Assembly (NCBI GenBank): GCA_016191105.1
Contig: JACPPH010000006.1
Coordinates: 32,670 to 96,669, forward strand
Reading direction: 5' to 3'
Length of the DNA stretch: 64,000 nt
Source of the DNA: Candidatus Saccharimonadota bacterium
GTDB lineage: Bacteria; Patescibacteriota; Saccharimonadia; CAILAD01; BJGX01
A program made the translations under genes and the position numbers. The notes under the pieces are model-generated. The model worked only from the letters and a program-made list of their open reading frames with translations, was not told the DNA's origin and did no database searches. Position 1 is the first letter of the stretch, and each line of letters starts with the position of its first letter. This document shows, piece by piece, positions 13,304-39,633 of this stretch.

Positions 13304-13696
13304 GGGGCTGACTAGCTTCGACATTGAATCTTGAAATATACCTGCAGGCCGGGTTGGAATGCACGTTAGCCGTTCCGCCAAACCTTAAGTGGCAAAACAC
13401 TTATGAGCAAACTGGTAAACGCTTTGCGCGTTGACAGCTTTGCACCAGCTTACGCTTAACCCGTGTAAGCCGCTGATTGTTCGACATCAGATAGAACCTG
13501 ACGCGTCAACCATCTGATTGCTTTCCGGATAGCCCCTTCATATCTGGAATCAAGCCAAAGATAGGGGAAGCATGTGCTTGTTTTGTTGGTTTTCTTAGAT
13601 AGCACAGCCTTCTAAAACACATCAAAGCTAACTACGCTTGTAGACGGTATATTGAAAGCTCGATGGACGAGGGTGCGATTCCCTCCAGCTCCACCA
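13304..13696 (+). ncRNA. ssrA: tmRNA; predicted tag (A)GKTLMSKLVNALRVDSFAPAYA at 13391-13459
   Basis: 5' GGGGCTGA..TTCGAC, 3' T-arm and CAGCTCCACCA with a G-U pair at 3:70; internal tag ORF ending AYA-TAA; TAGTAT -10 upstream; smpB in the window. Confidence 0.96.
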
Positions 13697-20587: not shown

Positions 20588-21709
20588 CTAGCTTATTAGA
20601 GTTAGTAGTTTTGGAAAATAGTAGACAGTGGCACCCTTTGTGCCTCTAACAGATCTTATGGAATCGATCACCCTATCTTCTAATAATCTGTTAACCAAGG
20701 AACTGGCAGTAATTCTAGAGATTTTCAGTGTCTTTATTACATGGGAGATTTGGAATACTGGTGTTTCAAATATCATGTTAACCATTCTGTTCATATTGGG
20801 GGATTGTGAACCTTCGTACCTATCAAGCAATATCTCATTTAGCTTGGTTATCTTTTCTACAAGACTGATCGATATGCCACACTGTTCCTTTAAGGATTCC
20901 AGGAAGAATATTATCCAAGGGGTGATGTCGCCAGTTGTGTCAACATAGTGAAGCATCTGACGGTATTCCTTTGCTTTTTTCTCGAAGTATTCACTGGTGT
21001 AAAGGACGGGGGCAGAAAGTGCACCCTGGTATTGAAGAAGGGCAGGGATTAACATTCTACCAATTCTTCCATTCCCATCCTCAAATGGGTGGATAGCCTC
21101 AAACTGATAGTGGAAGATTGCAGTTTTTATCAAGGGCGTCTCATCTGTGGAGTTAAAATAGTCAACCAGATTATCCATATATCCTTCCACAGCGGTGTAG
21201 AAAGGTGGAACATAGGTAGCTTTTTGTATGGAAGTGCTCTTGTTTTTACCTATCCAAACATCTTTTGACCTAAATTTACCAAGAGCTCCGTTATGAGGGG
21301 TTCTATGTAAGAGAACATAGTGAAGTTGACGTATCTGGTATTTTGAAATGCCGCCCTTTTGATCTTTTATCTTCATAGCAAGACGCATCGCATCACGATA
21401 ATTTGCAACTACGATGGTATCTTGTTGGGGCGCTTTGCCTGTTGCGTCAAGAATGAAAACATCCTTAGAATCGGTGATTGTACCTTCTATCTTGGAGCTT
21501 AGAGAAGCCTCTCTTGTTAGTAGGGGCTTTATCAAGTGTTCTGCATTAGATATTTTACTGTGTGCAGTTTGGAGCATACCTAATGCATACGAAGCTTCCG
21601 CTAACTGCCGGTAGTACTTGCTGGGATCAAGATTTTTTAAGGGTAAGTATGATGGTTGACCGTATTTTACATTCATGATATATAACTTTCTATGAATATT
21701 ATACATCAT
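20588..21709 (-). CDS. Fic-family protein with C-terminal HTH
   Basis: SSKIEG inhibitory-type motif and HPFEDGNGRIGR Fic motif. Confidence 0.93.
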   Translation of the reverse strand: MMYNIHRKLYIMNVKYGQPSYLPLKNLDPSKYYRQLAEASYALGMLQTAHSKISNAEHLIKPLLTREASLSSKIEGTITDSKDVFILDATGKAPQQDTIVVANYRDAMRLAMKIKDQKGGISKYQIRQLHYVLLHRTPHNGALGKFRSKDVWIGKNKSTSIQKATYVPPFYTAVEGYMDNLVDYFNSTDETPLIKTAIFHYQFEAIHPFEDGNGRIGRMLIPALLQYQGALSAPVLYTSEYFEKKAKEYRQMLHYVDTTGDITPWIIFFLESLKEQCGISISLVEKITKLNEILLDRYEGSQSPNMNRMVNMIFETPVFQISHVIKTLKISRITASSLVNRLLEDRVIDSIRSVRGTKGATVYYFPKLLTLIS

Positions 21710-37237: not shown

Positions 37238-38236
37238 ATGAAGGTTCGAAACATAAATAAGCGTGTGGTATCAGGCATTACGTCTAGTAACATTCCGACA
37301 ATCGGCAACTATCTGGGTGCTATGGTGCGTTGGGCTCAAGAACAAGATGAGGATAAGCTTTACTTTATTGCGAATTCTCACGCTATAACAGTGCGCCAAA
37401 AGGCAGATCACTTACGAAATTGCAGCTTAGACAGCTATGTCTGGTTGATTGCTGGCGGACTTGACCCAGATAAATGCATCATTTTTATACAGTCGATGGT
37501 GCCAGCCCATACAGAATTGGCCTGGATATTAAATAACTACACGACTATGGGCGAGCTTAACCGCATGACTCAGTATAAGGATAAAACTGCTCGCTTTGGA
37601 GAGGCTGGGCAACTAGCCGGGCTTTTTGACTACCCGGTGCTAATGGCTGCCGATATATTGCTTTATGATGCCGATGAGGTCCCTACTGGCGAAGATCAAA
37701 AACAACACATTGAACTAACTAGAAATATTGCTGAGCGCTTTAATAATCTGCACGGTGAAGTTTTTAAGTTGCCCAAACCAGGTATCGATGAAGTTGGAGC
37801 GAGGATCATGAACATAGCCGACCCTTCTAAGAAAATGAGCAAGAGCGATCCGGGGCCGGGTACGGTCTACCTTAAAGATACTAGTGAAGAGGTGATCACT
37901 AAGTTTAAGAAGGCGGTGACTGATTCAGGTAGTGAAGTTAAGTACGACAAAGCAAAAAAGCCAGCCGTTTCCAATCTGCTGGAGATTTACCACGGCTTTT
38001 CTGGCAAACCGATCGAAGAAATTGAGAATAAGTATAGGGGTAAGGGCTACGGCGACTTCAAGAAAGACCTGGGGGAGTTAGTGGCCGGCAAATTAGAAGA
38101 GTTGCAGGCTAAATTTAACAAGATCCGCTCTAACGAAAGTGAATTAATGCGAATCATTGAGTCTGGTAATGTCAAAGCCTCTAAAATTGCCAACAAAAAA
38201 CTCGAGCAAATAAAGCAAACTATTGGCTTGCTGTAA
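37238..38236 (+). CDS. trpS: Tryptophan--tRNA ligase
   Basis: TIGNYLG, YPVLMAADIL, GEDQKQHIE, KMSKS. Confidence 0.96.
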   Translation: MKVRNINKRVVSGITSSNIPTIGNYLGAMVRWAQEQDEDKLYFIANSHAITVRQKADHLRNCSLDSYVWLIAGGLDPDKCIIFIQSMVPAHTELAWILNNYTTMGELNRMTQYKDKTARFGEAGQLAGLFDYPVLMAADILLYDADEVPTGEDQKQHIELTRNIAERFNNLHGEVFKLPKPGIDEVGARIMNIADPSKKMSKSDPGPGTVYLKDTSEEVITKFKKAVTDSGSEVKYDKAKKPAVSNLLEIYHGFSGKPIEEIENKYRGKGYGDFKKDLGELVAGKLEELQAKFNKIRSNESELMRIIESGNVKASKIANKKLEQIKQTIGLL

Positions 38237-38288: not shown

Positions 38289-38318
38289 TTGACATAAGCA
38301 TAAGCACTGTGCTATACT
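38289..38318 (+). promoter_or_regulatory. Sigma70 promoter with no downstream ORF
   Basis: TTGACA-N18-TATACT with extended TG. Confidence 0.75.
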
Positions 38319-38324
38319 AGTATC

Positions 38325-38856
38325 AATCTCAAGCGCATCTTAAAAAAACAAAAACAAAACTTGCCACAACTCATAAAAGAGCTTAAGGATTTGAACTCTA
38401 AAAATCCTGCTTTAACCACTTGTAACAGTGGGGCGACTTGGTACTAAAAAACAGCCCCCTTGTTTTTTAGTACCAGATCTCCCTACTGTTCGAGGGTAGT
38501 TGCCTGCTTGGCCCTCAAAAGCTAAGAAGGCGTATCACACATCCCGCTGGGACTTGCTCGGCCTAAGGGCTTTTTATGCTTAACAAGCCAAAGAACCTTT
38601 GAGCCGAGTAGGTTACCGCAAGGATGGTTGGGAATATGTCGGCAACATTCTCCCGTTTCTTGCGACTGTTTTATACGAGAGAACCACCGACAAGCACACA
38701 CCCGGTAATCCTAGGGCCCCCATTCTAGGAGTACTAACCCGGGCCGGTGCCCGCTAATATTGTTTCATAACATTTAAGAGTGGATGCATCGGCCCGTAAC
38801 CAAAGCATTTATTTAAGATCTGATAGTACCAATGCCGCCCAGCCAGGGCGGTTTTT
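38325..38856 (+). ncRNA. Candidate large structured ncRNA of about 510-530 nt, family not recognised
   Basis: Own promoter and terminator, at least seven hairpins, 5'/3' closing stem, no ORF of 60 aa or more. Confidence 0.65.
38834..38856 (+). terminator. Intrinsic terminator
   Basis: GCCGCCC-AGCCA-GGGCGG followed by TTTTT. Confidence 0.8.
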
Positions 38857-38871
38857 GGTTATAATAGTTAT

Positions 38872-39633
38872 ATGAGCAAATACAATCAGTACGACCATTT
38901 TGCAGCAGACAAGCAACAAAGGCTAATTAAAGGCCAGAGCCTGCCTCATTCCTATGTAGAGAAGCCGGCTATGCGCAAAATGCTTCCTGACTTACTAGGG
39001 CAAAAAGTGCTGATGCTGGGTTGTGGCACAGGGGAAGAGTCGAGGCTTCTTGAAGAGAAAGGTGCAGCTGAATTAGTTGGCATAGATAAATCAACAGTGT
39101 CGATAGAACTGGCCAAAAAGACTTATCCCGGCCACACCTTTAGGTCAGGAGATATAAATGACCTTGTTTTTGATAATGAATCCTTCGACTTTGTTTATAG
39201 CAGTTTAGCAATTAATTACACGGGTAAACCAAAGAATGTTTATAAAGAAGCCTACAGAGTTCTCAAGAAAGGCGGTAAATTCCAATTCTCAGTACCACAT
39301 CCTGTTAGGTGGGCTTCAGAACGCATAATAATTGAAGGAAAGCCAGCTCGGATACTCGGTTTCGAAGAAGTAAAGGGTGAGAGTAGAGTCTTTGGCAATT
39401 ATAACGACTATCTAGAGTATTCACACGAGCTCACAATATCAGATGAAGACCCGATTCGTTTCTGGGTGGGTTCACCGAGCATGCATTTTCGGCTATTAAA
39501 AGAAACCGGGTTTAAGATAGAGGACTTTGTAGAAACAAAAGCTATAGAAGAGACAAAAACGGTAGACCCAAATTACTACGCAAGATTTAGTAAGTTACCA
39601 CAGTTCACTTTGTTTCTAGCGACTAAGCCTTAG
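38872..39633 (+). CDS. Class I SAM-dependent methyltransferase
   Basis: VLMLGCGTG, GIDKS, SFDFVYS, RVLKKGG. Confidence 0.9.
   Translation: MSKYNQYDHFAADKQQRLIKGQSLPHSYVEKPAMRKMLPDLLGQKVLMLGCGTGEESRLLEEKGAAELVGIDKSTVSIELAKKTYPGHTFRSGDINDLVFDNESFDFVYSSLAINYTGKPKNVYKEAYRVLKKGGKFQFSVPHPVRWASERIIIEGKPARILGFEEVKGESRVFGNYNDYLEYSHELTISDEDPIRFWVGSPSMHFRLLKETGFKIEDFVETKAIEETKTVDPNYYARFSKLPQFTLFLATKP

Follow-up and report, generated by a model that had tools for sequence, protein, structure and literature searches.

A predicted large structured RNA conserved in Saccharimonadia and several other classes of Patescibacteria

Results

A stand-alone structured RNA gene lies downstream of trpS

In the window that we analysed, a 64,000-nt stretch of the genome of a Candidatus Saccharimonadota bacterium (contig JACPPH010000006.1), a 635-bp gap separates the end of trpS (38236) from the start of a SAM methyltransferase gene (38872). 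According to the initial annotation, this gap carries no ORF of 60 aa but a large structured RNA, transcribed from a promoter of its own and ending at a terminator. No ORF of at least 60 aa was found, the promoter proved to be close to consensus with an extended -10 (Table 1), and a terminator hairpin is present at 38834-38852. The existence of the RNA itself is supported by the conservation, covariation and Rfam scans described below.

The + strand RNA was predicted to fold at -206.2 kcal/mol (z = -9.5, with 0/100 shuffles as good), compared with z = -4.3 against shuffles for the - strand. Seven of the nine stems listed previously pair fully, with mean pair probabilities of 0.95-1.0. As for the other two, the stem at 38492-97/38512-17 was mis-specified, pairing at only 3/6 positions, and the stem at 38617-24/38657-64, which is pairable at 8/8 positions, has a pair probability of 0 because a conserved helix competes with it. 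The stem taken to close the molecule (38337-44/38812-19) is not conserved, as a 5´-3´ closing helix of -6 kcal/mol or better was found in just 6/45 copies. An excess of G-U pairs, cited earlier in favor of the + strand, was not seen in the raw counts (19/167 pairs on the + strand vs 22/170 on the - strand); we assign the RNA to the + strand because of the promoter, the terminator, the z-score and A-U/G-U interchange in the homologues. A repeat or mobile element was rejected, since the gene is single-copy in the host genome (928 kb, 99.7% complete). The gap contains a stand-alone structured non-coding RNA gene of ~480 nt, and we regard it as very probable that the RNA is real and functional.

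Evidence of transcription came from one metatranscriptome, in which a single 257-nt soil contig, ~90% like positions 38425-38651, lies wholly within the RNA. This is thin evidence, as the contig derives from a relative and could reflect DNA carry-over. Of the words, 7% were present in one RNA run; contigs over the 3´ domain and the neighboring gene were missing, an absence that carries no weight. A preprint on the TM7x transcriptome states in its available text that small RNAs were not validated (10.1101/2022.03.25.485537).

Table 1. Features of the RNA locus and its surroundings in the window
Feature	Position	Strand	Remarks
Sigma-70-type promoter (-35, 18-nt spacer, extended -10)	38289..38318	+	11/12 consensus; precedes all 45 full copies
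Predicted ncRNA transcript	38324..38856	+	start inferred from -10; conserved body about 38324-38802
BoxA-like element (degenerate here), then single-stranded A-rich tract with interspersed C	38333..38360	+	
Possible mini-ORF, TTG start, 28 codons	38361..38447	+	putative translation
Hairpin 1	38386..38408	+	loop semi-conserved
P2, long helix	38424..38490	+	covariation; capped by conserved C5 loop (38455-38459)
P3, variable hairpin	38502..38531	+	
P5, long hairpin	38540..38626	+	base conserved, tip variable
Purine-rich conserved segment 3´ of P5	38626..38634	+	five invariant G in alignment of 31 copies; may form the 3´ strand of a long-range leader helix, pairing support outside the window's family only
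P6, variable hairpin	38637..38692	+	
P7 hairpin	38704..38735	+	loop holds second GCCCCC (not conserved)
P8, universal 3´ helix and 6-nt tail	38740..38802	+	covariation; 11-12 bp, 2-nt 3´ bulge, 4-bp GC helix, A-G mismatch, AU-rich tip
Intrinsic terminator	38834..38856	+	hairpin
trpS, usual upstream neighbor	37238..38236	+	Pfam tRNA-synt_1b
SAM methyltransferase gene	38872..39633	+	own -10-like hexamer at 38860
Gene for 4-helix membrane protein, about 130 aa	40005..40406	+	candidate partner

Two domains of the RNA carry compensatory changes

BLAST identified homologues in 45/60 relatives, and 45 full copies of 388-578 nt, the window's own included, were extracted. Common to the full copies are the promoter, the A-rich 5´ tract, P2 with its C5 loop, the G-rich segment after P5, and P8, and a terminator-like hairpin with a T-run is found 3´ of 44/45 copies. 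The spacer of 44/45 of the RNA promoters also carries a GCATAAGC/GCTTATGC-type motif (window 38295-38312) that recurs in promoter spacers genome-wide and is possibly a regulator or sigma-factor site.

Covariation was assessed in an alignment of 31 of the 45 copies, with near-duplicates left out. For P2, 96.3% of the cells are paired with two-sided change in 9/19 pairs, while for P8, 94.7% are paired with two-sided change in 12/19 pairs. Both scores exceed those of all 500 shuffles, and slid controls are 27-55% paired; since the shuffle controls ignore relatedness and the structures came from the same alignments, these comparisons are supportive and are not probabilities. On this comparative evidence, P2 and P8 are shown to fold as drawn. 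The search for homologues with covariation suggested in the initial annotation thus yielded both the homologues and two domains with compensatory changes. A tRNA-like ACCA end was rejected as a general feature, as no order other than that of the window retains it.

Scanning species genomes for a motif returned 91 loci. The P2 model scores 53 of them and gave no score for the remaining 38. The 53 comprise 44 loci titled Patescibacteria, Saccharibacteria or Saccharimonadia, eight titled 'bacterium', and one on a short contig in a Bacteroidetes bin. The last (L051, 1.7 kb) has a high-scoring P2 domain and is probably a misbinned Saccharimonadia contig.

The RNA matches no catalogued family

Within the whole window only tmRNA reached the Rfam threshold, and nothing did so over the locus, where Rfam 15 at E <= 10 gave nine weak matches, all far below the gathering thresholds. 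Likewise, 14 homologue loci had no match at threshold over the RNA. Covariance models for ROOL, GOLLD, raiA, T-box, and group I and II introns gave no match at the gathering threshold, and ribozyme models did not match the RNA. The earlier exclusion of RNase P, T-box and tRNA stands: the genome's true RNase P gene scores 213.5 bits elsewhere and its model does not match here, there is no T-box match, and no tRNA or tmRNA was called at the locus, the genome's tmRNA being at window 13304-13696. There was no match to 6S RNA and no SRP RNA model match at the locus, and Ffh and FtsY were not found in the genome. For OLE RNA, no RF01071 row at E <= 10 falls over the locus, and a genome-wide model search, run without a positive control, was empty. 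P8 is also unlike both group II intron domain 5 and the SRP helix 8 consensus, and these likenesses were rejected.

Like ROOL, GOLLD, raiA and other large orphan RNAs, the RNA is of similar size, has many hairpins and its own transcription unit, and belongs with RNAs of no known function; unlike them, it has no Rfam match and is single-copy, chromosomal and not found in the phage collections searched. We conclude that it is a new class that matches no catalogued family. No description of such an RNA was seen in the literature searched, mostly open-access, and the supplements of large motif catalogues may list one; a term search of the searchable text of a 2024 review shows no mention of non-coding RNA or SRP (PMC11665869).

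Other RNA genes noted in the course of these scans include a 6S-like RNA (L023, G000:C10:23993-24155; 36.7 bits, under the Rfam cut-off), a tRNA-SeC with a TCA anticodon at window 20690-20783 (ARAGORN call), which is surprising for a genome as reduced as this, and a tRNA-Asp carrying the anticodon ATC beside a second tRNA-Trp (G000:C3:83717-83794, C3:83446-83518; ARAGORN), possibly belonging to an integrated element or a miscall. The 16S gene (G000:C10:109132-110781) is 1650 nt vs 1533 for the model, with an intact anti-SD. Directly after it comes not 23S but a terminator-like hairpin, which suggests unlinked rRNA genes.

The RNA is found in several classes and can be reduced to a small core

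A first model of the 3´ part matched 78/151 genomes of the class Saccharimonadia and 4/151 genomes of a phylum sample. We built a broader P8 model of 73 positions from 44 copies across classes; its helix is 91.6% paired, with two-sided change in 13/16 pairs. At E <= 0.05, this model, which may miss diverged copies, matched 117/151 class genomes and 25/151 phylum-sample genomes, counts that include the training copies, which match by construction. The largest of the families that it mostly misses (4/27 matched) has a diverged RNA form with an extended P8, which was present in all 10 genomes cut out by position. P8 matches were found in 21/143 genomes of other classes. Nineteen of these are intergenic with a similar layout (four of them in the training set and three weak), one is inside a gene and one is uninspected; among 18 other-class copies examined, the A-tract is present in 16 and the C-loop in five. 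One further class had no match to the P8 model (0/38 genomes), and another had one weak, uninspected match among six genomes. By these sequence matches, the RNA is kept across Saccharimonadia and several other classes of Patescibacteria; the class with 0/38 means that universality in the phylum is not implied.

Copies of the RNA differ in size, between about 150 and 600 nt, but share a small fixed core. In the minimal copies (about 150-220 nt) nothing is left besides the A-tract, P8 and one or two hairpins, and because these parts are what the minimal copies keep, we take the fixed core to be the A-rich single strand plus P8. The A-tract pattern was seen in 78/104 regions scanned. At three loci (L195, L209 and L265), an A/C-rich tract inside a short hairpin lies ~250 nt upstream of the minimal RNA on the opposite strand, an arrangement that suggests a divergent small transcript. 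One genome (G260) has two weak loci (L296 and L300), each with a promoter, A-tract and P8-like helix, which could be a duplication or include one false match.

Occurrence outside Patescibacteria was rejected on the loci of the species-genome motif scan. Motif scans of viral contigs gave two loci and at least 120 loci, and 82 of 122 were rescored with the 3´ model. Carriage by phages was rejected, as one rescored match is a terminator-like hairpin directly after a phage ORF and was judged to be chance, and there was no RNA match among the annotated phages searched.

A 4-helix membrane protein gene is the usual downstream neighbor in the class

Of 83 class loci, 76 have trpS upstream of the RNA and 63 have pheS on the side of the RNA away from trpS. 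A gene for a 4-helix membrane protein lies downstream on the same strand in 76/83, within 700 nt in 66; of the seven loci lacking it, three have <450 nt of sequence. Its start is >700 nt from the RNA in 10 loci, several of which have an unrelated gene between. The methyltransferase gene in the window is such a lineage-specific insertion between the RNA and the membrane gene and is not part of the system. A DnaA-box-like 9-mer in the 39685 region, between the methyltransferase and membrane genes, is one of nine such sites genome-wide and is likely unremarkable.

In a second neighborhood, which lacks trpS and pheS, the RNA again has the membrane gene beside it; there the pair precedes a gene that by its look and the published gene order encodes a TraG/VirD4-like ATPase. 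The two are also adjacent in two genomes of another class. Starting from the membrane gene, 3/19 usable class loci had, by eye, no RNA upstream. Outside the class, the RNA is near in only 2/29 loci of the membrane gene, and what follows the RNA there is often a dksA/traR, lspA or rluD-like gene.

The 4-helix protein was found in 143/151 class genomes and 111/151 phylum genomes. Its predicted structure has four helices (pLDDT 94), with no Pfam, NCBIfam or PDB assignment and no Foldseek match at E <= 0.001; the best VIA match (Z 9.2) is to soluble helical bundles and is not informative. Look-alikes in the Atlas were noted in Chloroflexota. By gene order only, the likely orthologue in S. epibionticum is SEML1_0140, which lies upstream of two essential genes and was called non-essential once and growth-defect twice by Tn-seq (PMC10633639).

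The 5´ leader combines a boxA-like element, an A-rich tract and, in many near relatives, a possible mini-ORF

A loose boxA-like pattern begins 44/45 copies, the degenerate copy in the window being the exception, and published boxA consensus sequences are similar (PMC13753749). As in rRNA operon leaders, which act with NusB and S10, the element is near the 5´ end and is followed by an A/C-rich linker, and the host 16S leader has a similar stretch; unlike in those leaders, no rRNA follows and the element heads a short terminated RNA. NusB is encoded in the host genome, while rho was not found over the cut-off in this genome. A boxA-like element and A/C-rich tract resembling the RNA 5´ end were also noted ~260 nt before an rsmH/mraW-like gene (G000:C5 near 107493), and such leaders may be a general feature.

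A start codon is present within 30 nt of the A-tract in 34/45 order-level copies. Of these 34 mini-ORFs, 23 end in a stall motif (PP-stop in 17 and DP-stop in six), the dipeptides at which termination stalls most strongly in E. coli (PMC7246954, citing Hayes 2002). Near-relative mini-ORFs are mostly 5-15 codons; the window's own 28-codon ORF does not end in Pro. They show synonymous codon changes and length changes in whole codons. The 23 stall-motif mini-ORFs come from about three related clades, and as the codons overlap with helices that are conserved, they could be accounted for by RNA pairing. Since no start was found in 11/45 order-level copies, coding of a protein by the RNA in general was rejected.

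Discussion

A scaffold at the membrane is a tentative reading

We tentatively suggest that the RNA may be the scaffold of an OLE-like, ribosome-contacting RNP that is tethered to the membrane by the neighboring 4-helix protein, without being a member of the OLE family. The near-consensus promoter and intrinsic terminator, both seen in the sequence, would release a free RNA. The boxA-like element might recruit NusB/S10 and aid co-transcriptional folding, as in rRNA leaders, where Nus factors are suggested to serve as rRNA-folding chaperones (PMC4807359); antitermination is an unlikely purpose for the element, as rho was not found. P2 and P8 would then fold, as their covariation indicates, with lineage-specific hairpins added around both. 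The A-rich strand could load a 30S subunit or S1, a stall-motif mini-ORF could hold the ribosome on the RNA in near relatives, and the base of P2 might offer a bS21 site like that of OLE P6. Finally, gene order points to the 4-helix protein as the component that would attach to the RNA, with P8 as the simplest site, and bring it to the membrane.

The comparison with OLE (RF01071) has two sides. Like OLE, the RNA is a large stand-alone structured RNA beside a small membrane-protein gene, and the OLE partner OapA was found through gene adjacency (PMC12054373). The 3´ strand of P2 shares 8 nt and a following AGG with the OLE P6 region (49 and 37 of 83 class loci), the region that is bound by bS21 (PMC12054373), and bS21 is present in 148/151 class genomes. 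An 8-nt match between RNAs of such size can be chance, the likeness was seen in only 1/18 other-class copies, and P2 is absent from the minimal RNAs. Unlike OLE, which is a fixed ~600-nt fold in a different phylum, the RNA described here is modular; its neighbor has no OapA-type family among the best 25 of 32 weak Pfam rows, and the host genome has no L7Ae/OapC homologue. If the mechanism proves OLE-like, the RNA would rank within a known kind of system.

Because loci outside the class mostly have the RNA separated from the membrane gene, the adjacency within the class may be plain synteny. This bears on a soluble decoy or scaffold with 6S/CsrB-like logic, in which some conserved protein of Patescibacteria (for example a Nus factor, S1 or a KH-domain protein) is titrated by P8 and the A-tract while the membrane gene just happens to be syntenic, a role that we consider rather unlikely. 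It would fit the universal core of an A-tract plus one bulged helix that survives in the shortest copies, as well as the similar leader that precedes another gene cluster of the genome. The RNA has no repeated binding motifs, however, a separate 6S-like RNA exists (below the family cut-off), and the adjacency to the membrane gene outlasted a rearrangement.

Unlikely, too, is a ribozyme or RNA-centered machine in which a long-range helix between the leader and the G-rich segment closes a junction presenting the A-tract, which acts on some substrate. Invariant nucleotides do concentrate in P2, the G-rich segment and P8, and the fixed 2-nt bulge of P8 adjoins the 4-bp GC helix. Matched changes in several lineages make the long-range helix plausible in distant lineages, where it is better than swapped partners in 21/27 copies, but it is so in only 31/58 overall and is unsupported in the window's own family. 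No ribozyme model matched, and most of the middle of the RNA can be lost.

The Ffh M (signal-peptide-binding) domain was detected in 0/151 Patescibacteria phylum genomes and in 14/14 controls, and the SRP GTPase domain and small SRP RNA were not found in the 99.7% complete host genome. In a replacement of SRP, the RNA would hold ribosomes and, with the 4-helix protein, bring them to the membrane translocon, so that in Patescibacteria an ancient RNA and a phylum-specific 4-helix protein would be a second, independently built solution to the SRP job; we judge both the replacement and this wider proposal improbable. Candidate ribosome-loading and membrane-anchor parts exist, and some other classes have lspA close to the RNA. 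Like SRP RNA (RF00169; large type RF01854), the RNA fills a housekeeping-like single-copy niche, here in a phylum where the SRP protein was not found; unlike SRP RNA, it has no model match, no Ffh/FtsY in the genome and no conserved 5´-3´ closing helix. Comparison with the known consensus revealed no SRP-like helix 8 motif, and dksA-lspA-rluD clustering is common in bacteria. Furthermore, a search of one class did not find the RNA in any of 38 genomes, though Ffh is missing phylum-wide. The likely S. epibionticum orthologue of the membrane gene is growth-defect, not essential (PMC10633639).

The initial annotation had likened two GCCCCC loops to the target-binding loops of RNAIII-type regulators. 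Both loops are present (38454 and 38716), but the second is not conserved, with a C-run in the second hairpin of 6/45 copies, so the analogy is weak. A trans-acting antisense regulator like RNAIII/RsaE, whose targets would be mRNAs with G-rich Shine-Dalgarno regions complementary to the C5 loop, seems doubtful. The C5 loop on its long stem resembles those RNAs, is invariant in 31/31 aligned order-level copies and recurs in 5/18 other-class copies, one family without the C-loop carries an exact anti-SD hexamer, and the upstream regions of 98/959 crudely called genes pair with the C-loop at -8 kcal/mol or better. Unlike in RNAIII/RsaE, only this one loop is conserved, and it is common but dispensable, being absent from the minimal RNAs, from whole lineages and from several other forms that keep the RNA. 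The candidates are not enriched for membrane or secreted proteins (Fisher p = 0.15), no target-gene class stood out in this rough scan, and in one clade a G-run within the RNA is a possible pairing partner of the C-loop. Pairing of a GYACCU motif with 16S helix 45 was also considered and rejected; there is one complementary site, but the motif shifts position and the pattern also caught stem sequence.

A cis-acting leader, T-box-like or an attenuator, for the membrane gene or pheST is highly improbable: although the RNA is between trpS and pheS in most class members and stall-prone mini-ORFs are typical of attenuators, no T-box match or antiterminator was seen, the neighborhood changes completely in other lineages, and a terminator after 44/45 copies together with a membrane gene >700 nt away, past inserted unrelated genes, argues that the RNA is not cis-acting.

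Implications for Patescibacteria

New large bacterial RNA classes are rare, and the present one is single-copy in highly streamlined genomes of a phylum to which a large part of bacterial diversity belongs. The small core that stays fixed while the size varies from about 150 to 600 nt points to the functional parts, and Saccharibacteria are transformable, with Tn-seq data in existence (PMC10633639). Single-copy retention across several classes of Patescibacteria is the pattern of housekeeping RNAs, and the RNA frames the question of how a phylum without a detectable SRP targets its membrane proteins.
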